Origin: Akkermansiaceae bacterium UBA7890
GTDB taxonomy: Bacteria > Verrucomicrobiota > Verrucomicrobiia > Verrucomicrobiales > Akkermansiaceae
DNA length: 64,000 nucleotides
Reading direction: 5' to 3'
Assembly: GCA_002501065.1 (NCBI GenBank)
Contig: DLRK01000196.1
Coordinates: 133,048-197,047, forward strand
In this document: positions 9,386-60,230 of the stretch, piece after piece
How the letters are laid out: every line of letters starts with the position of its first letter
Numbering within the stretch: the stretch's first letter is position 1
The notes under the pieces: generated by a model
The model's input: the letters and a program-made list of their open reading frames with translations, nothing else
What the model was told of the DNA's origin: nothing
Databases searched by the model: none
Program-made: the position numbers and the translations under genes

Positions 9386-9505
9386 ACGATGGGGGATGGC
9401 CCCGGAATGGGCGGCCTCTGAAACGGAGTCGCCTCATCGAGCGACACAACTCCTTTACAAACAGGCTCTCGTGATCACGATTTGGTCGGAAGGAGAGACA
9501 AATCC

Positions 9506-13566: not shown

Positions 13567-15717
13567 ATGCGTGATTCCTCCACCTGCGGCCGTCTCGCTG
13601 AGATTCTGGTCCTCATTCTCTCAATCCTGATCCACGGGGGGGGCCTCGCTGCCCCGGCATCTCCGGTGTTGCCGGAAGATGTTCAGGAAGTGATCTATGC
13701 CACCCGCCCGTATGGACCCGACAATCACTACTACGCGAATTTCGGCTACTATTGCCAGGAACCGGGGAAGAAGGCGTATCCGCAGGGTGGCAGGCTCTGC
13801 CGACTGGATCTGAGGACCGGGAAGGTGATCTCCCTGCTCGATGATCCGACCGGGGGGGTGCGGGATCCGCAGTTGCACTACGATGGAGACAAAGTCCTGT
13901 TTTCCTATCGCAAGGGTGGCTCCGAGCACTACCACCTCTACGAGATCAACATCGATGGCAGCGGTTTGAAACAACTGACGGATGGGCCCTATGACGATGT
14001 CGAACCGACCTACCTGCCCGACGACGGAATCGCATTCTGTTCGACACGTTGCAATCGCTGGGTGATGTGCTGGAAGGTCCCGGTTGCCATTCTCTACCGC
14101 TGTGATCCGGGCGGAAAAAACATCCGTGCTCTCAGCAGTAACGCCGTGACGGAGAACACGCCTTCGGTTCTGCCGGATGGTCGCATTCTCTACACCCGGT
14201 GGGAGTACGTGGAGCGCAGCCAGCTCTGTTACCACCACCTGTGGACGGTCAATCCGGATGGGACCGGACAGATGACCTATTACGGCAACATGTTCCCCTA
14301 CGGCATGAATCAGAGTATTGCCCGGCAATCCGGAAACCTGGTCGACTACAAGAATGTTCCCGGCGCGGTGGCGATGCTGGATGCTAAACCGATTCCCGGG
14401 ACGGGGAGGGTGGTCGCGATCTTTTCACCGGGTCACGGCCGCAAGGAGCACCAGGGATATGTGACCGTGATTGATCCGCGCAAGGGTCCGGATGACCCGC
14501 CATCGGCGCGCCGTATTCACAGTGACGGCGGGTGGCGCGATCCCTATTCGGTTGCGCCTGACCGGTTCCTGGTGGCCAGGGAGCGCGAGCTTCACCTGAT
14601 GGATGAACAGGGAAACACCAGGCTCCTGCACCGCTTGACGGGTGTGCGACCGGACATGCGACTGCACGAGCCGGTTCCAGTCCGGGCGCGGGCCCGGGAA
14701 GGAAACCCGGTCAAACGAATTGAAACTTCCGAGGAAACGGGCCGCATGATCCTGGCTGATGTCACGATTGGGCGCAACATGGAGGGAGTCCAGGCGGGCG
14801 AGATCAAGAAGCTCCTGGTCCTTGAGCAACTCCCTGGTCCCTTCCACGTCAGTCCGGGGTTCGACGGCATCAGCCTGTGGGGCGCCTTCACCCTCATGCG
14901 CATCATTGGCACCGTCCCGGTGGAGCCCGACGGATCGGCCTATTTTGAGGTCCCCGCGATGCGCAGCGTGTTCTTTGTCGCTCTCGACGAAAACGACCTG
15001 TCCATGAAGAAGATGCAGAGCTTCGTCACGGTGCAACCCGGCGAAGTGCTGAGTTGCGTTGGATGCCACGAGCCTCGAACCATGGCGCCACCCAGTTTGA
15101 ACCAGCCCTCCCTGCTGGCAGTGAGCAGGCCCCCCAGCAAGATCGAGCCGATTCCGGACGTGCCCCAGATCATCGACTTCCGGCGCCATGTTCAGCCAGT
15201 TCTCGACCGGCACTGCGTGGAGTGTCACGGCCGGGAGAGATCCGATGGCAACCTGCGCATCGATGCGGCACGAAGCGTGACTTCCCACGGAAGCGGACGC
15301 GTGTTGAGTTCCTATGTCGAACTGGTGAAGCGCCTCGGGGAAATTGCCGATGGCCGTAACGCGCATGGAAACCGGGCTCCGCGGACGATGGGCAGTTCGG
15401 CTGCCAAGCTCATGCAACGCATCGACGGCAGTCACTACGACGTGAAGGTCTCTCCCCGGGAACACAAACTGATCAGGCTCTGGCTGGATTCAGGCGCGGT
15501 GGCGAATGGCACCTATGCCATCATGGATGGCGGGACGCCCGAGCGACCCAGTCCGAATTACATCCGTGAAATGAAGCGCTACGGGGTTCTGCCGGAAGAC
15601 TTCGAGCTGGGCCGTGATCCGATCGACGTCTATGCCCTCGATGAGGCCTACTGGCGGACCTTCTGGTACCGGTCGCGGGTCGCCGGGCAGGAAGCTGCGT
15701 TAAAGGCGGGGAAATGA
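13567..15717 (+). CDS. HzsA-related beta-propeller c-type cytochrome, paralogue 2 (short type, 2 CxxCH)
   Basis: 716 aa with a signal-like N-terminus. PD40-like blades: YHLYEINIDGSGLKQLTDGPYDDVEPTYLPDDGIAFCSTR, LPDGRILYTRWEYVERSQLCYHHLWTVNPDGTG. Haem block: GTVPVEPDGSAYFEVPAMRSVFFVALDENDLSMKKMQSFVTVQPGEVLSCVGCHEP. Second module: VQPVLDRHCVECHG. Confidence 0.85.
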   Translation: MRDSSTCGRLAEILVLILSILIHGGGLAAPASPVLPEDVQEVIYATRPYGPDNHYYANFGYYCQEPGKKAYPQGGRLCRLDLRTGKVISLLDDPTGGVRDPQLHYDGDKVLFSYRKGGSEHYHLYEINIDGSGLKQLTDGPYDDVEPTYLPDDGIAFCSTRCNRWVMCWKVPVAILYRCDPGGKNIRALSSNAVTENTPSVLPDGRILYTRWEYVERSQLCYHHLWTVNPDGTGQMTYYGNMFPYGMNQSIARQSGNLVDYKNVPGAVAMLDAKPIPGTGRVVAIFSPGHGRKEHQGYVTVIDPRKGPDDPPSARRIHSDGGWRDPYSVAPDRFLVARERELHLMDEQGNTRLLHRLTGVRPDMRLHEPVPVRARAREGNPVKRIETSEETGRMILADVTIGRNMEGVQAGEIKKLLVLEQLPGPFHVSPGFDGISLWGAFTLMRIIGTVPVEPDGSAYFEVPAMRSVFFVALDENDLSMKKMQSFVTVQPGEVLSCVGCHEPRTMAPPSLNQPSLLAVSRPPSKIEPIPDVPQIIDFRRHVQPVLDRHCVECHGRERSDGNLRIDAARSVTSHGSGRVLSSYVELVKRLGEIADGRNAHGNRAPRTMGSSAAKLMQRIDGSHYDVKVSPREHKLIRLWLDSGAVANGTYAIMDGGTPERPSPNYIREMKRYGVLPEDFELGRDPIDVYALDEAYWRTFWYRSRVAGQEAALKAGK

Positions 15718-15856: not shown

Positions 15857-18202
15857 ATGGTGAAATTTCTCATGGTCGCCGGTCTGTCTGGTTTTCTTTT
15901 CTCGAGCCCCGCGGGCGCGAAGAACCAGGCAGTGCAATCCTACGGGAAGATCCACTCCGGTGAACTCGGCTTTACCAGGATCGTTGTCTGCCAGCGGAGG
16001 GAGCTTTCTCCCTCCCACGTCTACACCTACCACCAGGAAGGCCTGCGGCCGGGAGGTGGTCTCTGGATCTGCGACTTCTCCGGTGAAAAGGTGCGCAAGA
16101 CCATGATTCTCGGCAGCCCGGACGGCGTGATCCTTGATCTCAACCTCCACTACGACGGGCGCACCCTGCTCTTCAGCTGGAAGCGCACCATGGAGGATCA
16201 TTTCCAGGTTTACTCGATCGGAATTGACGGCGGAAACCTGAAACAGATCACCAATCACGACTCCAACAACTTCAATGCCTGCTGGCTCCCGGACGGTGGA
16301 ATCGCGTTTCTTTCCGACCGCAAGCCGGCTTACGCCTACTGCTGGAAGACGACCACTCCCATCCTGTGGCGCTGCGATGCCGACGGCAGCAGGCCGGTTC
16401 GGCTCAGCGCCAATTACCTCAATGATTTCACCCCGGTGGTCTTCTCCGACGGCCGGATCGTTTACAGTCGCTGGGAGTATGTTGACCGGCCGGCTATTCC
16501 GATCCAGAGCCTGTGGTCGATCAACCCCGACGGGACGGGGCTGGCCGGGGTGTTCGGTAACCGGATCCTGAGCCCGGCCACCTTCATGGATGCGCGGGAG
16601 ATTCCGGGAAGCGATGGAACGATCCTGTGCGTTCTGACCTCGCACAACGGACCCTGTCGCGGAGCAATCGGGATCGTCGACCCGAAACTCGGTTCCAACG
16701 CCCAGGCCGCTATCAGGAACATCACCCCGGAAATCGACATTGGACGGATTGACGATGCGCGACGGGGCAATGGCATGCGGGGTCCCTACCTCAACCCCTT
16801 TCCGGTCAACGGGACTTACTACCTGGTTTCCAAGGCCGGCGAGATCGAACTGCGTGATTACGGGATGCAATACACGGCCCGCATCCTGGGCAAATCAGGG
16901 GAGCTTGGCTTTTATGCGCCCCAGCCGGTAAGAGCACGCAGCCGGGAGAGGCTCCTGGCCTCCAGCCTCCGGGAACCAGAGGATGAGGAACAGGGGTGGG
17001 GGACCATCTTCATGCAGGACGTCTACGAGGGGCTCGGCGGCAAGGTCGAACGGGGATCGGTGAAGCGGTTGGCGGTGGTGCAGGAAGTGGAAAAACCGTT
17101 GGGAATCGATCCCTCCAAGCGGGCTTTTGGATTTCAGTTTCCGGTGGTCAGTGCCGGCGCCACCTATGCGCCCAAGAAGATCTGGGGTTACGCAAAGGTT
17201 GAGCAGGACGGATCCGCTCATTTCCGCGTTCCGGCCCGGGAGCCGATCTACTTCCTGCCGATTGATGGGGAGGGCCGGGCCGTACAGCGGATGCGCACCT
17301 TCACGCATCTCATGCCGGGCGAGGTGCAGAGTTGCGTCGGTTGTCACGCCGACCGCAACAATGCGACGCCCCGGAGGGAGAGGAAAAGCACCGTGGCCCA
17401 GTCACGTCAGGTGGAGGAACTGACCCCTCCCGAATGGGGTGTTTCCGGGTTCAGCTATGCCCAGCTCGTCCAGCCCGTCCTGGATCAGCACTGCGTCAGT
17501 TGCCACAGCCACGAAGAGCAGGCCGGCGATCTTGAACTGACCGGGGACAAGACGGACTTTTTCAATGTTTCGTATGACAACCTGATCCGGAAAGGGCGGG
17601 ACAGGTATGTTCAATGGATCTCCACCTACAATGGCCAGGAATCCAACATCCTCGAAATCGAACCGGGCCGCTGGGGGGCCAAGGCGTCCCTTCTCGGACA
17701 GGTCGTTGCGACCGGGCATCCGGACCAGGAAGGGAAAAAGCGGATCGATCTCCCACCCGACCAGAAGCACCGCCTCTACGCCTGGATGGATCTCAACAGT
17801 CCCTACTACCGGAGCAGTGACTCAGCCTACCGGGAAAACAAGGGGTGCCGTCAGATTGTGCCCGACGGACTGCCCGGTGTGTTTGCCGATGTCGCAAAGC
17901 GGCGCTGCGTTTCCTGCCATGCGGGCCTGCAGGATGTGTTCAAGTCTCCGGGTCGTGACAGTTTCTTTATCCGTCTCGATCATCCTGAACGCAACGGATT
18001 CCTCCGTGCTCCTCTTGCAAGGAAAGCCGGCGGCACCGAGGCGTGTGGAGCAGCCGTTTATGCCGGCACCGATGACCCGGATTACCGGAGGTTGCTGGAG
18101 ACCTTCGAAGAAACCCGTAAGATGCTGGAAGCCAGGCCCCGGATGGACATGCACCCCATGGGCACCCCCTTCAAGTGCCTTCCTGCAGCCGAGACCCCCT
18201 GA
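15857..18202 (+). CDS. HzsA-related beta-propeller c-type cytochrome, paralogue 3 (short type, 3 CxxCH)
   Basis: 781 aa, signal MVKFLMVAGLSGFLFSSPAGA. Blades: LPDGGIAFLSDR, FSDGRIVYSRWEYVDRPAIPIQSLWSINPDGTG. Haem block: GYAKVEQDGSAHFRVPAREPIYFLPIDGEGRAVQRMRTFTHLMPGEVQSCVGCHAD. Additional modules: VQPVLDQHCVSCHS and RCVSCHAG. Confidence 0.85.
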   Translation: MVKFLMVAGLSGFLFSSPAGAKNQAVQSYGKIHSGELGFTRIVVCQRRELSPSHVYTYHQEGLRPGGGLWICDFSGEKVRKTMILGSPDGVILDLNLHYDGRTLLFSWKRTMEDHFQVYSIGIDGGNLKQITNHDSNNFNACWLPDGGIAFLSDRKPAYAYCWKTTTPILWRCDADGSRPVRLSANYLNDFTPVVFSDGRIVYSRWEYVDRPAIPIQSLWSINPDGTGLAGVFGNRILSPATFMDAREIPGSDGTILCVLTSHNGPCRGAIGIVDPKLGSNAQAAIRNITPEIDIGRIDDARRGNGMRGPYLNPFPVNGTYYLVSKAGEIELRDYGMQYTARILGKSGELGFYAPQPVRARSRERLLASSLREPEDEEQGWGTIFMQDVYEGLGGKVERGSVKRLAVVQEVEKPLGIDPSKRAFGFQFPVVSAGATYAPKKIWGYAKVEQDGSAHFRVPAREPIYFLPIDGEGRAVQRMRTFTHLMPGEVQSCVGCHADRNNATPRRERKSTVAQSRQVEELTPPEWGVSGFSYAQLVQPVLDQHCVSCHSHEEQAGDLELTGDKTDFFNVSYDNLIRKGRDRYVQWISTYNGQESNILEIEPGRWGAKASLLGQVVATGHPDQEGKKRIDLPPDQKHRLYAWMDLNSPYYRSSDSAYRENKGCRQIVPDGLPGVFADVAKRRCVSCHAGLQDVFKSPGRDSFFIRLDHPERNGFLRAPLARKAGGTEACGAAVYAGTDDPDYRRLLETFEETRKMLEARPRMDMHPMGTPFKCLPAAETP

Positions 18203-19674: not shown

Positions 19675-22380
19675 TCACTTTGGCGTGGGGCGGAAGTCGG
19701 GGTGGTTGCGATATTTCACGTTGCGTCGCCCGAAGTAGCTGCCGTAGTAAGGGGAATTGGCATCGATCCAGGTGACCAGCCTGATGAACTCGGATCTGGA
19801 CAGGTTGACGTCCGCATGTCCCTCGCGGATCAACTGCACCAGTTTGCTCACGTGAGAACCCAGGGTGTAGGGTGGGACCGGTGAGGCATCCCCGGTTTTC
19901 GGTTCGTTTTCGTGAAAGACCTGCACGAGATCCTTCTGGAGGAGATTCTCGTAGGAACGGTTGAAGAGGGTGGTCAGTTCACCGCTCAAATCGAGATCCC
20001 CTTCGAGTTTCTCCGCGTTGTGGCAACTCACGCAGTGCCGGTCCAGGATCGGTTGGACATCGACCGCATAGTGAATGGGACGAGGTCCGGAGTCGCCGGG
20101 TTGTGGTCTCAATTCATGGGGCCGGTGGTGCAGGGCAAGCATGGGCCAGTTCCTGGGAGTCCACTTTTTGGGGCTGTGGCAACCGATACAGGAGCGCGAT
20201 TCACCCGGACGCAGATTCACGAATGATCGCATCCGTTGCACCTCCATGAAATCCTTGTCGAGGGCCTGGAAGTAGAGGTTGCGATCAGGTGGAACCGTGA
20301 AGTGGGCGGAGCCATCCGCTTCGACCGGGACGATGCCGAGCATACGCTTGGCGTGGAGGCTGCCATTCATGCTGACTACGGCGTGTTGCTGGTAGCTGCT
20401 GTCCCCGTCCCAGAATCGCCGGGCAGCCCAGGGCCGGGCCAGGGTCTCCATGACCCGGAGGTATTTGATCGTTCCGCGTTCCACGCCATTCAATCCCACG
20501 TACACGTCGGACATGATGAGAGTGGCGGCAGTGTTGGCGGAGTCTCTTGACGAGATTGCAACAGGAGGGGTTTTCCTCGGTTGGGCCCGGATCGGTTGCC
20601 AGCAGGAGATCGATGAGTCCCGATGGATCAGCACCCGGTTTCCGAATTCATCCAGGAGGTAGATTCCGTAGGCGGAGAGATCGTTGAATTCGCGGTCGGG
20701 GTTGCAGGTGACCAGGAAGAACTTATCGTCGAGGGGATAGGGATCCGTGTAAAGCGGCCCCTTGTAGTCCCGGCGCCAGCGGCCATTGCGCTTGTGAAAG
20801 TAGCCGTGTTCGGTCCGCACATCGACGTTCGGGGTGATATAGGTCATCGAGGGGCGGGTGCGGCCGGACTGCCGGGTATCGATACGAATGACGGTCCCGA
20901 CTCCCAGCGGCATGTGGGGCGCGCCGATCACCACGAACTGGCTGTTGCTTCCCGGGATGGCCCGCCCGTGAAGCAGGGTATCGGGAAAGGTGATATTGTT
21001 GCCGTAAATCTCGGTCGAACCACTTCCGTCCGGAAACATCGCCCAGAGGCATTTGATCACCACGTCCGGTTTGTCCACGTATTCCCAGCGGGTGTAAAGG
21101 ATGCGCCCATCGTTCATCACGCTGGGGGATCCCTCGCTCAGCGGACCATTCGAAAGAACCTCCAGGTTCCGGCCATCGGCGTCCATGCGGTAGAGGGTGG
21201 TGGTCGTGAACAGGTCAGGAGTGTCACAAAGGATGCCGCGTTCGCACCGGGTGGAGACGAAACAGATCCCCCCGTCCGGCAGGTAGCATGGGTGCATGTC
21301 GTCGGTGTGATGATGGTAGGCCTGATCGATCCTGTATTTCCTGATGCGCGACTGTTCGTCGGGTGGATCGAAGGTGATCTGGCGAAGCCCGCTCCCATCG
21401 AGGCCCACTTCCCAGATTCGGAATCCCTTTCCAATTCTGGGTTTGTAGCCAAAGACGGCCCGCTTGCCATCGAAGGACAGATCGCAGCGTCCGAAGATTC
21501 CTCCGTTCAACCGGGGCGCAAGTTCCGTCACCGTTCCGTCCGCCAGGGACAGGACGCACAGATTCCCGCCGAAATGTTTACACCCGTTGATGTAATCAGT
21601 GTAGTAATGATTGGACTGGTAGGTGTGCCGTTTGACAAAGAGCAGTTTGTCAAACTGCAGGAGGGGATTGTCGGAAAGCAGGGCTTCAGTTCTCAATTGT
21701 TCGATCTCGTCGGCAGCCTCCGGCCTGGTCCTGAGTTCGCGTTCCAGCACCGTCAACCGGGCCAGGTGATCCTCATGTCCGGGGTAATCATAGCGGGCCC
21801 CAAGATCTGTAATCGCTTTGCGCAAACCTGCGATATTCAGCTCGGTGAGCTGTTCTTCAGCTTCTGCGGCTGGATCACGAAAGAGATTCTTCTTTGGTGG
21901 GATCTTGCTCGAAGAGACTGTCAGTCCCCTGAGATGAGGCATGAATCCGGAACTTGCGATCCGGATCGTGTTCCGGCCACGCACCAGATTGAACGGACCG
22001 TGGGATTGCCAGCGAAGATCACCGCTGAAGAATCCGCCCGTGGGTTCCTGAAGCGCCACTTCAGGATGATCCTCTCCGTTGATGCTCAGTTGGCAGGGAC
22101 GAGGTTCCCCCGAGCAGTAGTAGAAATGGACGGAATAAGCCCCGCCCTGAACCTCGATCGCCCACTCCATGAATCCTCCCTTCCCAACGCAGAGGGTGAG
22201 GTTGTCGAAGGCGGCGTATTCGGCCGCAATGTTGGATGAGCGCGCCGAAAGCTCGCGAGCGGGAAGACTGACATCCTCGGCCCGGAGCAGAGACCCTCCC
22301 GGGAGAAGCAACGATATCAGCGCAAGCAGTGACTTGATCTGACACAGGTGGGGAGCCGCCGTCCTGGAGAATCGCTTCAT
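19675..22380 (-). CDS. HzsA-related beta-propeller c-type cytochrome, paralogue 4 (CBM6/35-like N-terminal domain, 2 CxxCH)
   Basis: Start is set at ATG 22380 (MKRFSRTAAPHLCQIKSLLALISLLLPGGSLLRAEDV), which overlaps the upstream stop as ATGA. The 223-codon 5' extension in the track is Pro/Arg/Gly-rich junk. CBM-like domain: GGAYSVHFYYCSGEPRPCQLSINGEDH...LVRGRNTIRIAS. Linker: NPLLQFDKLLFVKRH. Blades: LPDGGICFVSTR, NDGRILYTRWEYVDKPDVVIKCLWAMFPDGSG. Haem block: GIVPVEADGSAHFTVPPDRNLYFQALDKDFMEVQRMRSFVNLRPGESRSCIGCHSP. Second module: VQPILDRHCVSCHN. Confidence 0.85.
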   Translation of the reverse strand: MKRFSRTAAPHLCQIKSLLALISLLLPGGSLLRAEDVSLPARELSARSSNIAAEYAAFDNLTLCVGKGGFMEWAIEVQGGAYSVHFYYCSGEPRPCQLSINGEDHPEVALQEPTGGFFSGDLRWQSHGPFNLVRGRNTIRIASSGFMPHLRGLTVSSSKIPPKKNLFRDPAAEAEEQLTELNIAGLRKAITDLGARYDYPGHEDHLARLTVLERELRTRPEAADEIEQLRTEALLSDNPLLQFDKLLFVKRHTYQSNHYYTDYINGCKHFGGNLCVLSLADGTVTELAPRLNGGIFGRCDLSFDGKRAVFGYKPRIGKGFRIWEVGLDGSGLRQITFDPPDEQSRIRKYRIDQAYHHHTDDMHPCYLPDGGICFVSTRCERGILCDTPDLFTTTTLYRMDADGRNLEVLSNGPLSEGSPSVMNDGRILYTRWEYVDKPDVVIKCLWAMFPDGSGSTEIYGNNITFPDTLLHGRAIPGSNSQFVVIGAPHMPLGVGTVIRIDTRQSGRTRPSMTYITPNVDVRTEHGYFHKRNGRWRRDYKGPLYTDPYPLDDKFFLVTCNPDREFNDLSAYGIYLLDEFGNRVLIHRDSSISCWQPIRAQPRKTPPVAISSRDSANTAATLIMSDVYVGLNGVERGTIKYLRVMETLARPWAARRFWDGDSSYQQHAVVSMNGSLHAKRMLGIVPVEADGSAHFTVPPDRNLYFQALDKDFMEVQRMRSFVNLRPGESRSCIGCHSPKKWTPRNWPMLALHHRPHELRPQPGDSGPRPIHYAVDVQPILDRHCVSCHNAEKLEGDLDLSGELTTLFNRSYENLLQKDLVQVFHENEPKTGDASPVPPYTLGSHVSKLVQLIREGHADVNLSRSEFIRLVTWIDANSPYYGSYFGRRNVKYRNHPDFRPTPK

Positions 22381-25145
22381 CGCGGGCCTTCCGTCCGGAG
22401 ACTCCGGGCGACTGTTACGCTTGTCCTGGCCGGGGTTCCATGCCTGCTCATGGCACGCCATGTCAGGGCGTAGTGATACGTTCCCTCCCGCAGGGTCGGA
22501 TCGAGGTAGGCCGAGCGGGTCAGGGACACGAGGTGAGTCGATTCGTCGGGGATGAAGTCCGGTTCCGTGCCGCGGTGCAGTTCGAAGACTACTCCGCTCC
22601 AGTTCGAAGAATGCTCCCACGAAAGCGAAACTCCCTGCGGAGTCGCCACCGCTCGCAGGGTGGGGGAGTGCGGGGGTGGCGATGGCGGAATGAGCTGCCG
22701 GCTGGAGCCCGGAATGATCTTCGCTCCCGGCATGTCCACCCGTGGGTCGGTGAGGGCGAGGTCCCGCCCCTTGCGCAAGGTGGCAAGCATGGATTTGTAG
22801 TGCTGGCTCTGAGTGGATGGAAAGCTTGCCATCGGCTCTCCGGAGCGGTCCGGTCTGCTGAACTCCCGGCGCGCAAAGGCGGCAACTGGCTTCACGGCAT
22901 GGGCGTAGTTGTTCACCAGTTGGCGAATCCGTTGATGGGCCGGATTCACGTGGCGCTCGCGGCAGAGTCCCAGTCCGAATCCCTCGGCCCCGGGCGCCAG
23001 CGGAGCTCGCAGAATGCGGCTCAGGTGAGGCTGTTGCAGGTTGATCCAATCCTCCTCAAACAAGACGGGGTTTCCCTTCTTGTCGCCGTGACAGCGCATG
23101 CAGTCGGCTTGGCGCATGTTCTCGATAAGGGCTTGGCGAGTCTGCTTCCAACCCCTGGTGGCACAACCCGATTTGGTGGAATCCCATGTGCCATGATACA
23201 GTCCGTTGCTGTCGATCCAGGCCATCAGCAAGTCGCGCTCGCGGGGGCTGAGTCCGGTTTCGCCGTGGCCGTCCATGAGGAGCCTGGCAAGCGGCGCCGC
23301 TCCCGATCCATGGGTCCGGGGTGGGAAGATTCGGGATGACCAGAGGGCGGTGCCATTCATGCAGTCGATTCCTGCAATGAGGGTGGCCACCAACTGACTC
23401 CTGCGGCGGCTGACCAGGTTCTCATAGCTGATGCTGAAGTGCTGGGTCCACCCGCCGGTGAGGTCCAGGCCGGCCTCCAGCCCCTCCGCGCCCCCATGGC
23501 AACGGATGCAGTGACGGTCGAGGATGGGTTGGACCATGCTGGGATAGTCGATTGCTCCGCTGCCCCAGGATTCGGGCTTCAGCTGGCTGGGCGGACTCGC
23601 CAGCAATTGCTGGAACCGGGGGTCGGTCTGGGGTGCACTTGTGCGATCCTCATGGCAGCCCACGCACGTGCGGGTGGTTCCTGGCACGGCCTGGATGAAA
23701 GTCCTCATGCTCTGGACGAGCCGGCCATCGCGGTCGAGGGCCTGCAGGTAGAGGGCCCGCCCGGCGGGCACCTCGAAGTAGGCGGAGCCTTCCTCCGTGA
23801 CCGGCACGGTTCCGAGGTAATTCTTGGCGCTGAATGCCAGGGCGGCACTGACCAGGAAGGTCTGGTTGTAGGGGCTGCCTCCCATCGTGGAGGAGGAAAC
23901 GCGTGAAGTTTCCTCGATTACTCTCAGCCGTTTGACCTCGCCGCGTTTCACTCCATCGAGACCCTGGTAGATGTCCTGCACCAGGAATCGGCCGGTGGTG
24001 GCCTTGCGGTCGATGCTGGAAGGAATGAAAACCGGAAGCGGCCGTGGCTTCACCAGCATGGGTGAGTGAAGGCAGATGTCCGGATCGTCCAGCAGGGTGG
24101 TGCGGTGCCCGGTCCGGTTCAAGAGCTGGATGGCATTGCGCTTCCGGCCGGGCAGGCGTCCGCTGAAGAGGACGGTTTCCTCGTTCAGGGGCCACGGTTC
24201 GCAGGAATCGCCGACATCGCGGGTCGGTTGGTCGGGATGCTCGAGATTGGTGAGGGCGGCCGGGTTGTTCTTTCCCTTGCTGGGGTCGAGGAATGCGATC
24301 GAGCCGCGGGGCGTGCCGTTGTGTTTGGCGAGGGTGCCGACCAGGAGAGAGGAATTGGGAACCGGACGGGCATCCAGGACCGCTTCCGGGAAGACCATGT
24401 TGTTGGCATAGAGCGCGGTTTCCTGGGTTCCGTCGGGATGGCAGGTCCAGAGGGATTGAATGGTCAGCGCGTTCTTGTCCACATACTCCCACCGTCCGAA
24501 CAGGATGCGTCCGTCCGGCAGCACCACCGGATCGAATTCATTGACGAAATTGACCGAGATCGAATGGAGATCGGACCCGTCCGCATTCATGACGTGCAGC
24601 ACCGCCACCCCGGTGTTGTTGCAGGGCACCAGTCCGCTTTGACGGGTGGAGAGGAACACGATGCGGCCATCGGGAAGGTAGGCGGGCGAAATATCATGCT
24701 GGCCACTCTTGGATCCCTCGTAAGACGCGCAGGTCGGTTCGGGATTGGTGAGGCGCCGGAGGTTGCGGCCGTCGAGGCCGATCTCATAGATGCTCGTGTT
24801 GCCGTCAGGTTTGCCCTTGAAACTGAAGAGCAGGCGGGTGGCGTCCCAGGAGAGCTCGGGATCGGTGTAGACACCGAGGCCCAGGGTCTCGGGAGTGGTG
24901 GGATCGATGATGGCCCGGATGCGCCATTGATCCTTTGGTGCAGACGGATTCTCCAGCAGGTAGATGCCTCCCCCGCCCGGCGGCCATTTGTAGTAGGTGT
25001 CGTAGATGTGGATGCCGGAGTAGGAATGGCGCTTTACGAAGAGAAGGGGAGCGTCGAGCAGGTGGGCAGGGTGCACCGCCGCGGCCCGGCCGGGCAGCAT
25101 TACGAAGCCGCAGAGAAGCAGGAATAGAATTCGTAGCATGTTCAT
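22377..25145 (-). CDS. HzsA-related beta-propeller c-type cytochrome, paralogue 5 (3 CxxCH, C-terminal Fn3-like domain)
   Basis: 922 aa, signal MNMLRILFLLLCGFVMLPGRAAA. Blades: LPDGRIVFLSTR, LPDGRILFGRWEYVDKNALTIQSLWTCHPDGT. Haem block: GTVPVTEEGSAYFEVPAGRALYLQALDRDGRLVQSMRTFIQAVPGTTRTCVGCHED. Additional modules: VQPILDRHCIRCHG, DCMRCHGD. The C-terminus looks Fn3-like: GVSLSWEHSSNWSGVVFELHRG...GTYHYALTW. Confidence 0.85.
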   Translation of the reverse strand: MNMLRILFLLLCGFVMLPGRAAAVHPAHLLDAPLLFVKRHSYSGIHIYDTYYKWPPGGGGIYLLENPSAPKDQWRIRAIIDPTTPETLGLGVYTDPELSWDATRLLFSFKGKPDGNTSIYEIGLDGRNLRRLTNPEPTCASYEGSKSGQHDISPAYLPDGRIVFLSTRQSGLVPCNNTGVAVLHVMNADGSDLHSISVNFVNEFDPVVLPDGRILFGRWEYVDKNALTIQSLWTCHPDGTQETALYANNMVFPEAVLDARPVPNSSLLVGTLAKHNGTPRGSIAFLDPSKGKNNPAALTNLEHPDQPTRDVGDSCEPWPLNEETVLFSGRLPGRKRNAIQLLNRTGHRTTLLDDPDICLHSPMLVKPRPLPVFIPSSIDRKATTGRFLVQDIYQGLDGVKRGEVKRLRVIEETSRVSSSTMGGSPYNQTFLVSAALAFSAKNYLGTVPVTEEGSAYFEVPAGRALYLQALDRDGRLVQSMRTFIQAVPGTTRTCVGCHEDRTSAPQTDPRFQQLLASPPSQLKPESWGSGAIDYPSMVQPILDRHCIRCHGGAEGLEAGLDLTGGWTQHFSISYENLVSRRRSQLVATLIAGIDCMNGTALWSSRIFPPRTHGSGAAPLARLLMDGHGETGLSPRERDLLMAWIDSNGLYHGTWDSTKSGCATRGWKQTRQALIENMRQADCMRCHGDKKGNPVLFEEDWINLQQPHLSRILRAPLAPGAEGFGLGLCRERHVNPAHQRIRQLVNNYAHAVKPVAAFARREFSRPDRSGEPMASFPSTQSQHYKSMLATLRKGRDLALTDPRVDMPGAKIIPGSSRQLIPPSPPPHSPTLRAVATPQGVSLSWEHSSNWSGVVFELHRGTEPDFIPDESTHLVSLTRSAYLDPTLREGTYHYALTWRAMSRHGTPARTSVTVARSLRTEGPR

Positions 25146-25151
25146 TGTGGG

Positions 25152-28100
25152 TCAGGGATCGGATTTCCGGTTGGATTGACCGGGAGGAACCTCGTTGGCG
25201 TTCCATTCAGATTCACAGACCACGCGGAAGCCGACGTTGTAGACGCGTTGCCATGGTTCGTAGTTCTGGCGGAATGTTGACGTCCCCCGTGCCGGCTCAT
25301 CCCGCCAGGAGCCCCCGCGGGCAACCCGTCGTTCATCCGGTTCCTCACGCGCCTGGTCACGCCCCGTCCCCGGATGCGGGGTGTAGGCGGAGCGGGTCCA
25401 TTCCGCGACATTGCCGTGCAGGTCGTGGAGTCCCCATGGGTTTGGCAGATAGCGCCCGGAGGCCACCGCGATGAGGGCCCCGTCATTGAACCGCATGTCT
25501 TTTGGGATCCAGTCGTCGAAGGGCGTCGGGTTGGCCAGTGGTTTGTCCACGGTGTAGGGATCGCTTGCGAATTCGCGCAGTTTCGCATCGGCGAAGTTCG
25601 CGTGTTTGGAAAAGTCATCATCAGCAGAACCGAAGTTGAAGGGGGTGGCGGTCCCGGCCCGGCAGGCCCATTCCCATTGCGCCTCGGTGGGCAGGGTGAA
25701 TTCCTGGCCGGTACGGGCACTCAGCCAGCGGCAGAACTCCATGGCCTCCTGCCAGGAAACCCGAACCACTGGCTGGCCCGGGTTGTTGGCGGGATAACCA
25801 TGAATTCCGAACTGGTAGGTGTTCTTGTCCTCGACCCGGCTGTCGTGTTTCGGATTGAAAGCGGCGAACTGGGCATTGCTGATCTCAAAGCGCCCCATCC
25901 AGAAAGGTTGCCCGATATGGGCGAGGGAGACGGGTTGCTCGTCCGCCGCACCGTCGCGGCTCCCCATCAGGAACTGGCCGGTGGGAATCCGCACCAGGTC
26001 GAGGTGGAGCCCCGGATCCAGCTCCAGGCGACGGTGAACGTCCGGTCCGGCCGCCGCCTGACGGCGGATCGCCTCGGTTCTGTCGAATGGCCATCCCGCA
26101 GCCTTCAGGTGTGATTTGGGCGGAACTTCTGGCTGGCGGGGTGTCTCGGGAGCGGGGGACGGGCGGACCGTGGCGGGGATCGCTTCAGGGTCATCGATCA
26201 CATTGGCGTAGCGCTTGAGGAGTTCGCGTCGGCGTTCCCGTTGCCGGCCGGGTTGCGCGATGTGCTCACCCCAGGTGCCGTGATAGGGACAATTGAGATC
26301 AATCCACGTCACGATACGGTCCCAGGCCTCGGCGTCGAGCTTCACCCCGTGATGCCCCTTCATGAGCAACTGCACAAGGTGTGTCGTATTGGCATGGAAT
26401 TCGAGCGGCTCCAGCACGTGCATCTCGCTCTCGATTCCGGGACGGCGCACGTAGCGGTGCAGCTCGGCGTAGCCCACTGAGAATTTTCCCGCCGTCTTCG
26501 CGTAGCCGCCGTTACCGGGCGTGACGGATTTCCAGTTGGTGATCATCTCAGTCCCGCGCAGATCGGGGATGGCGGTGCCCTCCGGCGACGCCTGCCCGTC
26601 ATGGCAACTCACGCAGTGCCGGTCGATGACGGGTTGGACATCGCGCGGGTAGCTGAAGCCGCGCACCGGCCCGTGCCAGGGCGTGATCTTTGATACCTCC
26701 CGGGTCAGGGCGTAGGATTCCCGGGCTGGTGGAGTGCTGTTCTGGCGATCGTGGCAACCGGTACATTGCACCGTCTCACCCGGCATGGCGGTCATCCAGC
26801 TGCGCATGAGCTGGAGCGCTTTGCCTTCGGCATCGAGCGGTTGGATTGAGATGGGGGTGTTGGCCGGCACCTGGAATCGCGCCGAGCCGTCAGCTTCCAC
26901 CGGGACGGTGCCGAGCACGCGCTTGATGTCCCATGGGCCGTCCATGCCGACGACACCAAGCAGTCCTCCCATGCCCTGGTAGGCATAATGATAGGTGAAG
27001 AGGCGCAGACTCTTGACCGTCCCGCGTGGAACTCCACGCAGACCCTCGCCGGAATAAATGTCCTGCAGGACCACCAGTGCGTCGGTGCGGACCGGATCGA
27101 CGCGGTCGGGAATGACTGGCGGGCGTCTGGATTTGCGCAGGGGAATGGGTTCCAGCAGGGCGAACTCCGGCAACTCCTTCAGGAGCAGAAGATTGTCGAA
27201 GACGTCCGTCAGGTAGATTCCCCACCGCGAGCGGGGCCCGGGCTTGCAGGCCACCAGGAAGTATTTCTCACTCAGGGGCCAGGGGTGGAGGAATTTCGGC
27301 CAGCTGTTCATGGTGAGTCCGTCCCGGATCAGGGGATCCACCTTCTTGCCGAAGCCGGGGATTCGCTGCACGACCGGTTCCCCTTCATGCCGGCCCTTTT
27401 GCGGGTCGAAGAGGACCAGTTCCCCCATGCGCGGATGATCGTGATGGCCGCCAATGACCGAGACGATCATGGTGGGATGATTAGGGACGGGTCGGGCGTA
27501 GAAGAACGAGTTCGGCCAGAAGGAACCGCTGCCCAGGTAGGCCGATTGGTTGGTGCCATCGGGATTCATGGTGAAGAGCAACCGCGAGTTCGAGTGCGGG
27601 GTGTCGGCATACTCCCAGCGAGCGTAGAGGACACGCCCGTCGTTCATCACGGTGGGGCACCAGTTGTGTTCCTGGTCGAAACAGAGTTGGCGGATGTTTC
27701 CGCCGTCGGCATCCATCAGATAGAGATTTGCGACGTGGGCGCTGCCATTGACGCAGGGCACGCCGACAAAGGAGGCGGTGGAGGTGAACGTGATCCTGCC
27801 ATTGGGCAGGTAGCAGGCGTCATAGCTGTCCACATCGGGTTGCTCACCGGTAAGTTGGCGGGGAGAGGGGGCACCCTGGAGATTCAGCTCGAACACTTGC
27901 CAGCGGCCGTTGGGGCCGGGCATGGAGAACAGGGCACGATCCGAATCCCAATGCAGATCGACATCGCCGACGAACTTCCCGCCCGGCTGGAAGAGGGTTT
28001 GCGGTTCGGCTCCCTTTTCCTTGAACGACAGCAGGCACAAGGCGTCGTCATAGCCTTTCCCGGGCAGGGAGCAGTTGCTCTCCCAGTTGCGCGGCAAGCC

Positions 28101-28484
28101 CAGGGCAGGCGATTTTGCGGAGCGTTTGACCAGGAGAAGCTGATCGAAATCGAGGAGGGGATTGCCCAGGAGGGCTTCATGCTGCAACGCGAGGAACTGC
28201 TCCCGGATATCTCCCCGGGTGGCGGCCTTTTCCATTTCCCCGAGTCGAGCGAGGTAACGCCCTCCTTCGGGATAGCGTCCTTCAAAGGTCTGGATCAGGT
28301 CCTCGACGGCACGGCGCAAGGCAGGAAGGTTGATTCCCGGTCCGTGAGCGCCACTACCGGGGGATGTTGACTTGGGCGATTGAGCATGGAGGGAGGCGGG
28401 GACCAGCAGGCCCAGAAGCAAGAATCCCCAGCGGTTCCCTGCGACGCCTCCCGGCAGAAAGCGAAAAAGTTCGGATCTGATCAT
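25152..28484 (-). CDS. HzsA-related beta-propeller c-type cytochrome, paralogue 6, fused to a C-terminal FGE-sulfatase (SUMF1/EgtB/PvdO-type) domain
   Basis: Start is set at ATG 28484 (MIRSELFRFLPGGVAGNRWGFLLLGLLVPASLHA). Linker: NPLLDFDQLLLVKR. Blades: LPNGRITFTSTA, NDGRVLYARWEYADTPHSNSRLLFTMNPDGTN. Haem block: GTVPVEADGSARFQVPANTPISIQPLDAEGKALQLMRSWMTAMPGETVQCTGCHDR. Second module: VQPVIDRHCVSCHD. The last ~285 aa are FGE-like: VRIPTGQFLMGS...PVVRVSWQEAMEFCRWLS...LPTEAQWEWACRAG...GLHDLHGNVAEWT...RVARGGSWRD...GFRVV. Confidence 0.85.
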   Translation of the reverse strand: MIRSELFRFLPGGVAGNRWGFLLLGLLVPASLHAQSPKSTSPGSGAHGPGINLPALRRAVEDLIQTFEGRYPEGGRYLARLGEMEKAATRGDIREQFLALQHEALLGNPLLDFDQLLLVKRSAKSPALGLPRNWESNCSLPGKGYDDALCLLSFKEKGAEPQTLFQPGGKFVGDVDLHWDSDRALFSMPGPNGRWQVFELNLQGAPSPRQLTGEQPDVDSYDACYLPNGRITFTSTASFVGVPCVNGSAHVANLYLMDADGGNIRQLCFDQEHNWCPTVMNDGRVLYARWEYADTPHSNSRLLFTMNPDGTNQSAYLGSGSFWPNSFFYARPVPNHPTMIVSVIGGHHDHPRMGELVLFDPQKGRHEGEPVVQRIPGFGKKVDPLIRDGLTMNSWPKFLHPWPLSEKYFLVACKPGPRSRWGIYLTDVFDNLLLLKELPEFALLEPIPLRKSRRPPVIPDRVDPVRTDALVVLQDIYSGEGLRGVPRGTVKSLRLFTYHYAYQGMGGLLGVVGMDGPWDIKRVLGTVPVEADGSARFQVPANTPISIQPLDAEGKALQLMRSWMTAMPGETVQCTGCHDRQNSTPPARESYALTREVSKITPWHGPVRGFSYPRDVQPVIDRHCVSCHDGQASPEGTAIPDLRGTEMITNWKSVTPGNGGYAKTAGKFSVGYAELHRYVRRPGIESEMHVLEPLEFHANTTHLVQLLMKGHHGVKLDAEAWDRIVTWIDLNCPYHGTWGEHIAQPGRQRERRRELLKRYANVIDDPEAIPATVRPSPAPETPRQPEVPPKSHLKAAGWPFDRTEAIRRQAAAGPDVHRRLELDPGLHLDLVRIPTGQFLMGSRDGAADEQPVSLAHIGQPFWMGRFEISNAQFAAFNPKHDSRVEDKNTYQFGIHGYPANNPGQPVVRVSWQEAMEFCRWLSARTGQEFTLPTEAQWEWACRAGTATPFNFGSADDDFSKHANFADAKLREFASDPYTVDKPLANPTPFDDWIPKDMRFNDGALIAVASGRYLPNPWGLHDLHGNVAEWTRSAYTPHPGTGRDQAREEPDERRVARGGSWRDEPARGTSTFRQNYEPWQRVYNVGFRVVCESEWNANEVPPGQSNRKSDP

Positions 28485-28669
28485 GGAAATGTGGATAGTG
28501 CGTTTCTTGACGGAGGATGACGCGCTGCTGCGGGACCATTGCCCAATCACGGGTAGTCCGTCAGATCCACCTGAACTCACCACTCCGGAGGCAGCAGTTT
28601 CACCTTCCCTTAAACTGCTCCATCACGGACACCCATTGCGAATGGAAAGGGTCCTTGATTGGACAAGTT

Positions 28670-35825: not shown

Positions 35826-38315
35826 ATGCCAAAATCCGATCGTTGGTGGACTTGTGGGAATCGAATGAGGAGAGAGAGGATGCACGTGATTCTGCCCGTG
35901 ATGGGATGTGTCTGCGTCCTGCTGAGTGGACGGCTTCACGCCGCGTCACCAGGGGTGGGGATTGAGAGTGAAGACTCGACGGAACTCCGATTGCAATTCG
36001 AAGTGTTGCAGGGAGACCTCAAGAAGCGCCAGCGCATCGCCGGGTATGCGAGCCAGGTCACCCATGAGGAAGCGTTGATCCTGGATGCTGATCGGGATCC
36101 GGTCGACGTGGTGCTGCGCCGGACGGAAGCGCTTCTCGACGACTTGAGCCGGGAGGCGGCGCCGCCCTTCACCACGATGCGCAAAGAACTGGCGGTGCTT
36201 CGGGAGGAGGTCCTGCGAACCGAAGTGGAAGACGCCGAGGGGCGCTATGCGGTTTATGAGAAGCTCTGTGCGCTTCGCCGCCGGATTGCGTTTTCGAATC
36301 CGCTTCTCGATTTCGACGAAGTTCTCTTCATGAAGCGCCACCGCTCGGGCTTCAATCACATGTGTGACCAGTACTACGGAGTGAATGCCAAGCCGGGTGG
36401 GGGACTTTACGTCCTTTCCGATCCCTTTGGTCCGGATCCGCAGGTGCGCGATATTCTGTCGGATTCGGTGGTGCAGCGAGGGCGGCTGAAGGGTGAGAAG
36501 CTGATCAACGGCTCCTTCGTGTCTCCGGATCTCTCCTACGACGGCAGGAACGTCCTCTTTGCATACGTGGAATGTGAAGGCGATACGAAACACAGACATC
36601 ATACCGATCCTTCACGTGGGCACTGGGCGGAAGGGCGCAGTTACCACCTCTTCAAGGTTGGAGTGGACGGGAGCGGGCTCGAGCAGCTGACGGACGGGAC
36701 GTGGAACGACTTCGATCCCTGCTGGCTTCCGAACGGAAGGGTCGCCTTCATCAGCGAGCGGCGGGGTGGCTACCTGCGCTGCGGCCGCGTTTGCCCGACC
36801 TACACCCTGCACGACATGGAGCCCGATGGCAGTGACATCCTGTGCCTCAGTCCGCACGAGACCAACGAGTGGCATCCCAGCGTGACGAATGACGGGATGA
36901 TAATCTATACTCGCTGGGACTATGTCGATCGCCACGGTTGCACTGCCCACCTGCCGTGGATCACAACGCCCGATGGGCGTGACTCGCGTGCTGTGCACGG
37001 CAATTTCGCACCCCGGGAGCGTCGTCCCGACATGGAACTCGATCTGCGTGCCATTCCCGGCTCCAGCAAGTTTGTTGCAACTGCCGCGCCGCACCACGGT
37101 CAATCCTTCGGATCGCTGGTGGTGGTGGATCCGCGGGCGAGGGACGACGATGCGATGGCGCCGGTGAAGCGGATCACTCCGGAAGTAGATTTTCCCGAAA
37201 CCCAGGGCGGGGGCCAGGTCTATGGCACGCCATGGCCGCTCAGCGAGAAGTACTACCTCTGTGTCTACGATGCGGGGATGAAGCCGGGTTTCGGGGGACA
37301 GGGCCGGAGGCACGTCCGGGGCAACTACGGGATCTACCTCGTGGATGCCTTTGGAAACCGGGAACTGATCCATCGCGATGGAGAGATTGCCTGTCAGAAT
37401 CCGGTTCCCCTGCGGGCGCGCCCGGTTCCGCCGCAGGTTCCAGTGGCGTCCCAGCGCGTGGCGGCGGGTGAGTCGGGGGAAGGCACCCTCGCGGTGTTGA
37501 ATGTCTACGACAGCCTGAAGGCGTGGCCGGAGGGAACGAAAGTGGACGCCTTGCGCGTTTACCAGGTCATTCCCATGTCAGTTCCCTCCGGGGCGCCACC
37601 CCACGAGGTCGGCCTGCGCCTGCCCACCGGGCGGGACTCCGTCATTCTGGCCCGCTATATCCTGGGCACGGTTCCGGTCGAGAAGGACGGGAGTGCGCAC
37701 TTTGTCGTTCCGGCGGGCAAGGAGTTGTTCTTCCAGGTCCTGGATGACGAGGGCCTCGCGGTGCAGTCCATGCGCTCGTCAACCTATGTCCAGCCGGGTG
37801 AACGGCTGGTGTGTGCAGGCTGTCATGAACCCCGGCATCGCACGCCGGAGCTTCAATTTGAACTGCCCCTCGCCCTGAGCCGCGAGCCTTCCAGGATCGT
37901 CCCTGATGTCGACGGGACCAATCCCTTCAGTTATCCCCGGCTGGTGCAGCCGGTGCTCGACCGGCATTGCGTCAAGTGCCATGCCGAAAATCCGGATACC
38001 TCCCCGAGACTGGACAAGGAGGTCATCGTGAAGGGTCGGCAGAAGTGGTACGCCTCGTATCACAGCCTCGCTTCCAAGTTCGGGTTCTGGAGTTACGGGG
38101 ACCGGCATCGGACCACGCCCGGTAAATTCGGAGCCCGGGCCTCCAAGCTCTACCAGATACTCCGGGATGGTCACTACGAGGTAAAGCTGTCCCAGGAAGA
38201 GATGCACCGGATCACGGTGTGGCTCGATTCCTGTTCGGTCTTCTACGGCGTTTACGAAAAAGAAGGAGGTGAAGCCCAGCTCCGTGGCGAGGTCGTGAAG
38301 CCGACCCTGGAGTGA
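35826..38315 (+). CDS. HzsA-related beta-propeller c-type cytochrome, paralogue 7 (2 CxxCH)
   Basis: 829 aa from ATG 35826. ATG 35880 is preceded by AGGAGAGAGAGG and gives the signal MHVILPVMGCVCVLLSGRLHA, so it is probably the true start. Linker: NPLLDFDEVLFMKRH. Blades: LPNGRVAFISER, NDGMIIYTRWDYVDRHGCTAHLPWITTPDG. Haem block: GTVPVEKDGSAHFVVPAGKELFFQVLDDEGLAVQSMRSSTYVQPGERLVCAGCHEP. Second module: VQPVLDRHCVKCHA. Confidence 0.85.
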   Translation: MPKSDRWWTCGNRMRRERMHVILPVMGCVCVLLSGRLHAASPGVGIESEDSTELRLQFEVLQGDLKKRQRIAGYASQVTHEEALILDADRDPVDVVLRRTEALLDDLSREAAPPFTTMRKELAVLREEVLRTEVEDAEGRYAVYEKLCALRRRIAFSNPLLDFDEVLFMKRHRSGFNHMCDQYYGVNAKPGGGLYVLSDPFGPDPQVRDILSDSVVQRGRLKGEKLINGSFVSPDLSYDGRNVLFAYVECEGDTKHRHHTDPSRGHWAEGRSYHLFKVGVDGSGLEQLTDGTWNDFDPCWLPNGRVAFISERRGGYLRCGRVCPTYTLHDMEPDGSDILCLSPHETNEWHPSVTNDGMIIYTRWDYVDRHGCTAHLPWITTPDGRDSRAVHGNFAPRERRPDMELDLRAIPGSSKFVATAAPHHGQSFGSLVVVDPRARDDDAMAPVKRITPEVDFPETQGGGQVYGTPWPLSEKYYLCVYDAGMKPGFGGQGRRHVRGNYGIYLVDAFGNRELIHRDGEIACQNPVPLRARPVPPQVPVASQRVAAGESGEGTLAVLNVYDSLKAWPEGTKVDALRVYQVIPMSVPSGAPPHEVGLRLPTGRDSVILARYILGTVPVEKDGSAHFVVPAGKELFFQVLDDEGLAVQSMRSSTYVQPGERLVCAGCHEPRHRTPELQFELPLALSREPSRIVPDVDGTNPFSYPRLVQPVLDRHCVKCHAENPDTSPRLDKEVIVKGRQKWYASYHSLASKFGFWSYGDRHRTTPGKFGARASKLYQILRDGHYEVKLSQEEMHRITVWLDSCSVFYGVYEKEGGEAQLRGEVVKPTLE

Positions 38316-54066: not shown

Positions 54067-54190
54067 CAAGAACGACTCACTGCATCCAGTCCGGCAGATT
54101 TCCCGCCGGAACTGGTTGGCGTTGCTTGGCTCGGTGCTTGGTTCGATCGTGGAGATGGTCTTCACGGTTGAGGAGGAAGCAGTTTCAAGG

Positions 54191-55552: not shown

Positions 55553-55598
55553 CAGAGCTTCTTTTTGTTCGTTGAGGCAAACAGGTTGCGGGTGGCAG

Positions 55599-58085: not shown

Positions 58086-58146
58086 GCTGCCGGGGCTTCT
58101 TGATTGGTTTATCCAGGAAGCCCGTTGGGGTGGTCGATTTCCGGTT

Positions 58147-59967: not shown

Positions 59968-60163
59968 AAACATGATTAACATGAATAGGATTACCGCCAC
60001 CAGCGTCATTAGCGTTGGAAGCGTACACTTCGCTATAAGAAAAACAGAAAGGCTCTTTATCCGTGAGACTCGACTAATTGACCTCAAGTTGTTCTGGGTC
60101 AAAACACCGCCAGGTGAGGGGAGGATCAAGATCTGCTGAACCGGGGTTAAAAGTTCCCAGACC

Positions 60164-60177
60164 TTGATCTGGATCAT
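60164..60177. promoter_or_regulatory. FNR-type box, one mismatch (TTGATctggATCAT)
   Basis: Lies in the relatively AT-rich divergent region. Its centre is 60.5 bp upstream of GTG 60231 (87.5 from ATG 60258) and 203.5 bp from ATG 59967 (minus). Confidence 0.4.
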
Positions 60178-60230
60178 CAACTGACCGGTTTTCGGGCGCA
60201 CGAGAACGTGAAGAGTGGCATTGTGGGGCG

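Follow-up and report, generated by a model that had tools for sequence, protein, structure and literature searches.

A Cys-less, PvdO-like FGE-fold domain fused to a hydrazine synthase alpha-like dihaem protein in Verrucomicrobiota, Planctomycetota and other bacteria

The window analyzed here is a stretch of 64,000 nucleotides of contig DLRK01000196.1 from Akkermansiaceae bacterium UBA7890 (GCA_002501065.1; Verrucomicrobiota). It contains a gene for a protein whose core is related to the alpha subunit of hydrazine synthase (HZS) and whose C-terminal part has the fold of formylglycine-generating enzymes (FGE). A signal peptide, a beta-propeller, the HZS_alpha domain, two CxxCH haem motifs, a linker and the FGE-fold domain are encoded in one polypeptide (Table 1). 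The fusion is conserved and has a single origin, and the fused domain has lost the Cu-binding cysteines of FGE. The domain is probably a binding module, most similar to PvdO.

The open reading frame (ORF) extends mechanically from a GTG at 28583 to 25152 on the reverse strand and is not interrupted by any internal stop codon. The likely start is the ATG at 28484, as in public gene calls. The representative of the corresponding database cluster, P0002, begins with MIRSELF and is one residue apart from the window protein (D1050N). The alignments and models described below were built on P0002, and D1050N is the sole difference from the window protein. Export of the fusion protein is implied by the c-type haem motifs, and the protein is probably periplasmic.

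In the long ORF, Pfam places PF18582 at residues 521-612 and PF03781 at residues 862-1122 (E 1e-41, 143.8 bits, profile positions 4-254 of 255). The six FGE-fold motifs quoted in an initial annotation of this stretch are all present. Its assignment of the fold is also supported by the AlphaFold2 (AF2) model of the isolated domain, which matches PvdO and true FGEs in PDB with a probability of 1.00. The initial annotation was right that the FGE-like part and the haem propeller form one secreted polypeptide, and this is a real fusion. It had placed the FGE domain directly downstream of the CxxCH modules. The domain is C-terminal to them but lies ~200 residues beyond the second motif. In between are the remainder of the second haem domain and, after it, a linker rich in Pro.

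Table 1. Features of the fusion gene, its operon and a hydrazine synthase-like cluster in the window
Feature	Position	Strand	Remarks
HZS-alpha-like dihaem propeller protein with C-terminal FGE-fold domain, whole gene	25152..28484	-	1110 aa + stop
Sec-type signal peptide MIRSELFRFLPGGVAGNRWGFLLLGLLVPASLHA	28383..28484	-	By-eye reading of the sequence
Beta-propeller region	27030..28199	-	P0002 residues ~96-485; strand-rich in full-length AF2 model
HZS_alpha middle domain PF18582	26748..27023	-	Pfam E 4.4e-31; haem motif CTGCH at its end
First haem motif CTGCH	26751..26765	-	Residue 574 of P0002
Second haem domain	26250..26744	-	Contains CVSCH
Second haem motif CVSCH	26601..26615	-	Residue 624 of P0002
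Pro-rich linker DDPEAIPATVRPSPAPETPRQPEVPPKSHLKAAG	26094..26195	-	Between second haem domain and FGE-like domain
FGE-sulfatase-fold domain PF03781, PvdO-like, without Cys pair	25218..26000	-	Pfam
Subfamily-specific, nearly invariant loop HDSRVEDKNTYQFGIHGYP	25791..25847	-	54-sequence alignment
GGSWRDEP, loop in place of catalytic CxxxxC loop	25293..25316	-	Alignment to the FGE of the same genome (GGSHLCHNTYCFRYR)
Candidate FNR/CRP-type box TTGATCGAAGTCAA	28670..28683		One mismatch; ~190 nt upstream of ATG 28484
Downstream operon partner, HZS-alpha-like paralogue	22377..25145	-	922 aa; ATG 6 nt past fusion stop
Third operon gene, HZS-alpha-like paralogue	19675..22380	-	ATG at 22380 overlaps preceding TGA (ATGA)
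Beta-gamma-like propeller + CCP/MauG dihaem protein	58147..60201	-	NCBIfam hydrazine_BC E 1.5e-48
Unfused alpha-like paralogue	55599..58085	-	Directly after the 58147..60201 gene
Gfo/Idh/MocA gene	54191..55702	-	
Rid/FkbO-like gene	53038..54327	-	

The core belongs to the HZS-alpha-like superfamily, as seen from PF18582, the two CxxCH motifs, and the fold of the full-length AF2 model, which matches Kuenenia HZS-alpha (5c2v chain A; Foldseek E 3.6e-23 over 822 columns, TMt 0.54-0.59) and TolB propellers. The second-best group of matches to the full-length model consists of PvdO and FGEs. HZS-alpha and the fusion core share the same three parts, namely a propeller, PF18582 as the middle haem domain, and a haem domain at the C-terminus, but their identity is only 15-16% and HZS-alpha has no FGE-fold domain. 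Since the direct phmmer match of the core to 5c2v_A in PDB reaches only E 1e-4, the relationship rests on Pfam and fold. The score against the true HZS-A equivalog NF052339 (hydrazine_alpha) is 46.8 bits, below the cut-off of 800. Co-localized alpha and beta-gamma homologues have been described outside the anammox bacteria; in these non-anammox HZS homologues the key catalytic residues are reported not to be conserved, and no function has been confirmed for any of them (Hagglund et al. 2025, PMC12758564). The text of that paper contains no FGE fusion or tail. PF18582 is also found above the cut-off in Bacteroides thetaiotaomicron, so the family extends beyond the Planctomycetes-Verrucomicrobia-Chlamydiae (PVC) group to a well-studied gut bacterium.

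The sequence of the fused domain indicates that it is not a sulfatase-maturing FGE and that the Cu-binding cysteines have been lost. The overall fold is common to both (SUMF1; human 1y1e, S. coelicolor 2q17/6muj, and T. curvata 5nxl), with template modelling (TM) scores of ~0.56-0.64, and Foldseek matches 1y1h, 2q17, and 5nyy with a probability of 1.00. The QPVV.VSW, LPTEAEWE, and GNV.EW motifs are shared, including the D..GNV.E stretch, a Ca-site motif. In contrast, FGE has two Cu-binding Cys (GGSHLCHNTYC), C336 and C341 in the human enzyme, whereas the fused domain reads GGSWRDEPARG and has no Cys. Where FGE has a long subdomain before QPVV, the fused domain has a short invariant loop.

The same genome has a canonical exported FGE, encoded by a separate gene on contig C187 (369 aa) with the motif GGSHLCHNTYCFRYR. 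In an alignment with this FGE, the fused domain has the sequence GGSWRDEPARGTSTFRQ and contains no cysteine, and the loop of the window protein is GGSWRDEPARGTSTFR. A C-x4-C pair after GGS was observed in 0 of 199 family sequences. One Cys is present in the loop (RPKRCT) in ~40% of relatives. This position can be C, A, S, or G, the window protein having Gly, and the single Cys was therefore rejected as a catalytic residue of the family. The Trp of the NVWEW motif is Ala in the window protein (HGNVAEWT), while the FGE of the same genome reads GGNVWEHC. This position is variable in the family, with GNVAEW in 90, GNAAEW in 38, and GNVWEW in 32 sequences. The initial annotation had considered that the haems could supply electrons to the FGE-like site, or that the oxidation of a thiol or similar substrate could be coupled to the cytochrome, and had named the loss of the catalytic Cys pair beforehand as a finding that would contradict it. 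This loss is what is seen, in the window protein and across the family.

The initial annotation had also tied the domain to a sulfatase in the same island. This sulfatase is present (ORF 9482..11092, PF00884) and contains CSPTR. There are 135 sulfatase-like ORFs in the 5.04 Mb of the genome, 69 of which have CxPxR. The density is ~1 per 37 kb, or ~1.7 per 64 kb, and thus a sulfatase inside the 64-kb window is expected by chance. Conserved synteny of the fusion with sulfatases was rejected, as a sulfatase lies within 10 kb in 4 of the 76 loci examined in other species. An anaerobic sulfatase-maturating enzyme (anSME) is encoded on contig C8 (TIGR03942, 474.5 bits). The proposal that the domain is an FGE fed by the cytochrome for maturation of the nearby sulfatase fails because its catalytic cysteines have been lost and the genome has ordinary genes for FGE and anSME.

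The closest relative of the fused domain with a solved structure is PvdO (5hha), both by sequence (E 6.3e-22, identity ~25%) and by fold (TM 0.67/0.76 for the AF2 domain model). The next matches by sequence are PorK/GldK (PorK second, E 5e-18), ToxD, and true FGEs (~1e-13). By fold, the FGEs from human, Streptomyces, and Thermomonospora follow. The ranking by NCBIfam is similar in that PvdO comes first, followed by GldK, SenA, and EgtB, and all scores are far below the cut-offs: 98.6 bits vs. 500 for the PvdO equivalog NF051459, 93.4 vs. 350 for the ring lipoprotein PorK/GldK (TIGR03525), 58.3 vs. 420 for SenA, and 56.5 vs. 360 for EgtB. The DinB-type iron-binding domain that is joined N-terminally to the FGE-like domain in the sulfoxide or selenoxide synthases EgtB, OvoA, and SenA was not found in the protein by Pfam.

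In Pseudomonas, the last step in the oxidation of dihydropyoverdine requires PvdO, a periplasmic protein with the FGE fold. PvdO and the fused domain are both exported, both have no FGE Cys pair, and in each the loop that follows GGS/GND-W includes a Pro and an acidic residue. In the HMMER alignment, the invariant Asp of GGSW-R-D-E-P is opposite the Glu of NDWGEPP in PvdO. In the ungapped register from GGS, this Asp coincides with the first of the two catalytic Cys in FGE. A Glu is reported to be essential in PvdO (cited in bioRxiv 10.1101/2021.05.21.445229); its possible correspondence to the Glu of NDWGEPP is only a lead. PvdO differs in that it is a stand-alone protein of ~280 aa, whereas the fused domain is a part of a dihaem HZS-alpha-like protein. 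It also has neither the HDSRVEDKNTYQFGIHGYP loop nor the DDWIPKD insert. No pyoverdine genes (pvdMNO, pvdP) were found as neighbours in the window or at the 76 loci.

Other Cys-less FGE folds are used in protein-protein binding: PorK/GldK in the type IX secretion (T9SS) ring (PMC12421860) and Tsi3, a type VI secretion (T6SS) immunity protein (bioRxiv 10.1101/2021.05.21.445229). Their inserts and partners differ from those of the fused domain, and no T9SS or T6SS genes were seen adjoining the fusion gene.

Invariant columns in an alignment of 54 sequences are clustered in three loops: HDSRVEDKNTYQFGIHGYP, the insert ...DDWIPKD.RFNDG, and GGSW.D.P. In the HDSRVEDKNTYQFGIHGYP loop, H72, D73, E77, K79, Y82, Q83, F84, G85, G88, and P90 are invariant. 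The two most conserved peptides in the alignment of the whole protein include YQFG[IV]HGY. Both the Asp and the Pro of GGSWRDEP are invariant. The AF2 model of the domain, built from the same alignment, has a predicted local distance difference test (pLDDT) score of 75.9 and a predicted TM score (pTM) of 0.82, and the full-length model has a pLDDT of 68.9 and a pTM of 0.67. The three loops have pLDDT below 50 in both models. Ordering of the loops by docking onto the core was not seen in the full-length model, indicating that they are not ordered there by intramolecular packing. Invariant loops predicted with such low confidence are the pattern expected of loops that would become ordered on a ligand, cofactor, or partner. 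The pLDDT of the linker is 39-59 in the full-length model, suggesting that it may be a flexible tether.

The initial annotation had suggested a search for the same fusion in other PVC genomes, and it proved to be conserved in hundreds of PVC bacteria. A database search with the FGE-like part as a query, restricted to long proteins, found 6223 proteins at E <= 0.001. In the best 120 of the 6223, PF18582 and PF03781 are found together and the FGE-like part is 60-75% identical. These 120 are from metagenome-assembled genomes (MAGs) of Verrucomicrobiota and Planctomycetota and are named "SUMF1/EgtB/PvdO family nonheme iron enzyme" by NCBI. Exactly two CxxCH motifs are present in 121 of 121 family proteins. 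Some relatives have additional CBM6, NPCBM, or F5/8-type-C (discoidin) modules. A scan of one genome per species revealed at least 328 confirmed stretches, labelled as Planctomycetota, Verrucomicrobiota, Lentisphaerae, Hydrogenedentes, and Armatimonadota, and also in individual MAGs under other labels. Among the 76 loci from other species where the ORF could be identified, the FGE-like part lies inside an HZS-like ORF with two CxxCH motifs in 75, and the lone exception is an ORF cut by the contig end. In the phylum Verrucomicrobiota, matches at E <= 1e-60 were observed in 34 of 201 sampled genomes and 13 of 104 genera. Nearly all of them lie in open frames spanning 1100-1450 aa, and a single genome has up to 9 copies.

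In a tree of the propeller-haem core only, all 11 FGE-fused sequences (both copies from the UBA7890 genome, eight relatives, and Akkermansia) form one clade with a support of 100 and a stem of 0.9. The tree was constructed with FastTree only. The single clade and its long stem indicate one ancient fusion, retained since. The mean identity to 53 family members is 69.5% for the propeller, 85.5% for the HZS_alpha middle domain, 68% for the second haem domain, and 66.4% for the FGE-like domain, which is as conserved as the core. The linker is the least conserved internal segment, with 43% identity versus 66-85% for the domains.

The second FGE-fused paralogue of the genome (C88_9909_13322, 1137 aa) is 44% identical to the window protein over the full length. 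It has no HDSR...YQFG loop and reads GGSFRDRPHRCRS. On contig C88 (6041..13322, reverse strand), it is followed by an unfused paralogue of ~907 aa, and the layout is partly parallel to that of the operon in the window. Most relatives (e.g., P0003) have an extra N-terminal domain of ~170 aa, F.IPA.AFDRGNA...GxFPHV..LRF, with no Pfam match. It is missing in the window protein, and a similar block, GFMPHLRGLTV, is present at the N-terminus of the protein encoded at 19675..22380. The FGE-sulfatase superfamily as a whole comprises 147,258 clusters at 50% identity (E <= 0.001), and up to 22 FGE-like stretches are arranged in tandem in one protein (e.g., P0145, 4448 aa).

Three closed Akkermansia genomes (G078, G063, and G087) have exactly one HZS_alpha gene each, which is the FGE-fused one. 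The gene order in Akkermansia is the fusion gene, a beta-gamma-like gene, and a Rid/FkbO-like gene. In G078 (C1:1506000-1524000, locus L099, 7212..13776), the fusion protein is 1181 aa and the beta-gamma-like gene follows 14 nt later. The fusion protein of A. muciniphila, WP_306701308.1, belongs to a 90% cluster of 1237 members and is widespread in assemblies. No FGE Cys pair was found in the PF03781 proteins read from these three genomes, and none of the three has an anSME (TIGR03942) above the cut-off, the best matches being 44-48 bits. The latter agrees with the report that many A. muciniphila strains, including the type strain, lack anSME and show no sulfatase activity (PMC8920140).

The fusion gene is the head of a tight three-gene operon in the window. 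Boxes of the FNR/CRP type (TTGAT-N4-ATCAA, at most one mismatch) are enriched in the window, where 8 are present and 1.09 would be expected; none of 100 shuffles had that many. They are at 3121, 15808, 28670, 31797, 31803, 35779, 50982, and 60164, and several are upstream of HZS-like paralogues. Eight HZS-alpha-like ORFs are present in the window (3840..7562, 13567..15717, 15857..18202, 19675..22380, 22377..25145, 25152..28484, 35826..38315, and 55599..58085). The whole genome has ~29 such ORFs in 5.04 Mb, two of which have an FGE-like tail, and another Verrucomicrobiota genome, G197, has 59.

No conserved neighbourhood was found across the 76 loci. Another HZS-like paralogue is the gene found most often nearby (16 of 76), followed by Gfo/Idh/MocA genes (9) and genes for a beta-gamma-like propeller with dihaem (7). 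GH95-like and PQQ-like propellers (5-6) and ThuA (4) are rarer. The neighbour with propeller and dihaem is distantly homologous to the fused HZS beta-gamma subunit (hydrazine_BC E 1.5e-48 and 4.7e-34, scores that are far below the cut-off). The fusion gene adjoins this fused beta-gamma-like gene in Akkermansia and at those seven loci, as seen in other non-anammox homologues. In the window, a separate cluster at 53038..60201 on the reverse strand resembles a non-anammox hydrazine synthase-like unit. The genome has no beta-gamma-like gene and no long Rid-like gene outside this cluster.

It is probable that the FGE-fold domain is a Cys-less, PvdO-like module for binding a ligand, substrate, or partner and is an integral part of a distinct HZS-alpha-like clade. 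The domain would hang on a flexible Pro-rich linker from a core of propeller, catalytic-type haem, and electron-transfer haem. The three invariant loops would surround the former active-site face of FGE and bind a ligand, substrate, or partner. The binding may serve the haem-propeller core or, where present, the HZS-like alpha/beta-gamma complex. A binding role is favoured because the Cu site is lost, the tether looks flexible, PorK and Tsi3 are precedents, and relatives add CBM6, NPCBM, or discoidin modules, which fit accessory binding modules. The lack of a conserved sulfatase neighbour also favours it. Some observations weigh against this reading. The His/Asp/Glu/Lys/Tyr-rich loop and the Asp at the place of the first Cys are strictly invariant across several phyla. 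Such invariance exceeds what a module that only binds usually shows, and a catalytic or cofactor-binding role would account for it as well. A ligand for the FGE-fold domain was not identified, and the confidence of AF2 is low exactly in the conserved loops.

The strict conservation of polar loop residues is unusual and could instead point to a second active site, in which a PvdO-like redox module would dehydrogenate an organic substrate without Cys or Cu, and the electrons would leave via the two c-type haems. The position of PvdO as the closest relative by sequence and fold, the alignment of the invariant Asp with its Glu, and a domain as conserved as the catalytic core, with which it co-diverged as judged from the long stem, are consistent with this. 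Purified PvdO had no cofactor and was inactive, and its electron route is unknown (PMC6206403). However, the similarity is remote (25% identity and a score far below the equivalog cut-off), there is no pyoverdine context, a flexible linker of ~35 residues is a poor fixed path for electrons, and catalysis by PvdO itself has never been shown in vitro. We consider such a redox module unlikely. Only in this PvdO-like form, without an FGE reaction, could the coupling of an oxidation to the cytochrome, suggested in the initial annotation, hold. Still more doubtful is an elaboration in which a PvdO-type catalytic or substrate-presenting module would be wired to c-haems in a periplasmic enzyme composed of HZS-like alpha/beta-gamma with an associated Rid/FkbO-like protein. 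In PVC bacteria other than anammox bacteria, among them Akkermansia muciniphila, this enzyme would carry out an oxidation that may be nitrogen-centred. If true, the fusion would be a "Rosetta stone" indicating that the electron partners missing for PvdO-like proteins are c-type cytochromes.

A role in sulfatase biology is far less probable in either of two forms. The human paralogue of FGE that lacks the Cys pair, pFGE (1y4j), is among the fold matches, and in this sulfatase-rich genome the domain might act like SUMF2/pFGE and, without being catalytic, bind periplasmic sulfatases that are unfolded or other CxPxR proteins. Such a chaperone has no reason to be joined to a dihaem propeller enzyme, and sulfatase synteny is absent, making this very improbable. 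Slightly less credible is a formylglycine-generating or thiol-oxidizing sulfatase maturase, possibly O2-independent, with haems giving or taking electrons. The FGE fold, the richness in sulfatases, and the three Akkermansia genomes that have neither canonical FGE nor TIGR03942 above the cut-off would fit it. The family-wide absence of the Cys pair, the Ala at the NVWEW Trp, the canonical FGE and anSME in the same genome, and the rarity of sulfatases near the fusion argue against it. Indirect evidence also comes from the literature, in which A. muciniphila strains without anSME showed no sulfatase activity (PMC8920140), while the fusion is widespread in assemblies of this species. That the fusion is an assembly or frameshift artefact of two separate genes, or a decaying remnant, is already refuted: the ORF is uninterrupted, the architecture is seen in more than 190 independent assemblies including the closed Akkermansia genomes, and the mean domain identity of 66% indicates purifying selection.

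The FGE fold, its Cys-less state, and the HZS-alpha-like family are each already known, and their combination is abundant and automatically annotated. No description or test of a fusion between FGE-sulfatase and hydrazine synthase-like parts was found in the literature searched, and no characterized member of the fusion family was found. As in the initial annotation, no characterized example of a haem-tethered FGE-like domain turned up. The names [quoted passage not shown] and "nonheme iron enzyme" should not be taken as the function of this family.

The fusion is an old and strongly conserved architecture that joins non-anammox HZS-alpha relatives with Cys-less PvdO-like FGE folds, both of which are poorly understood. 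It occurs in many Verrucomicrobiota and Planctomycetota, and in Akkermansia it is the sole HZS-alpha-like gene, beside genes of the beta-gamma-like and Rid-like kinds. Akkermansia can be cultivated and is genetically tractable, and the function of the fusion is thus directly testable there.

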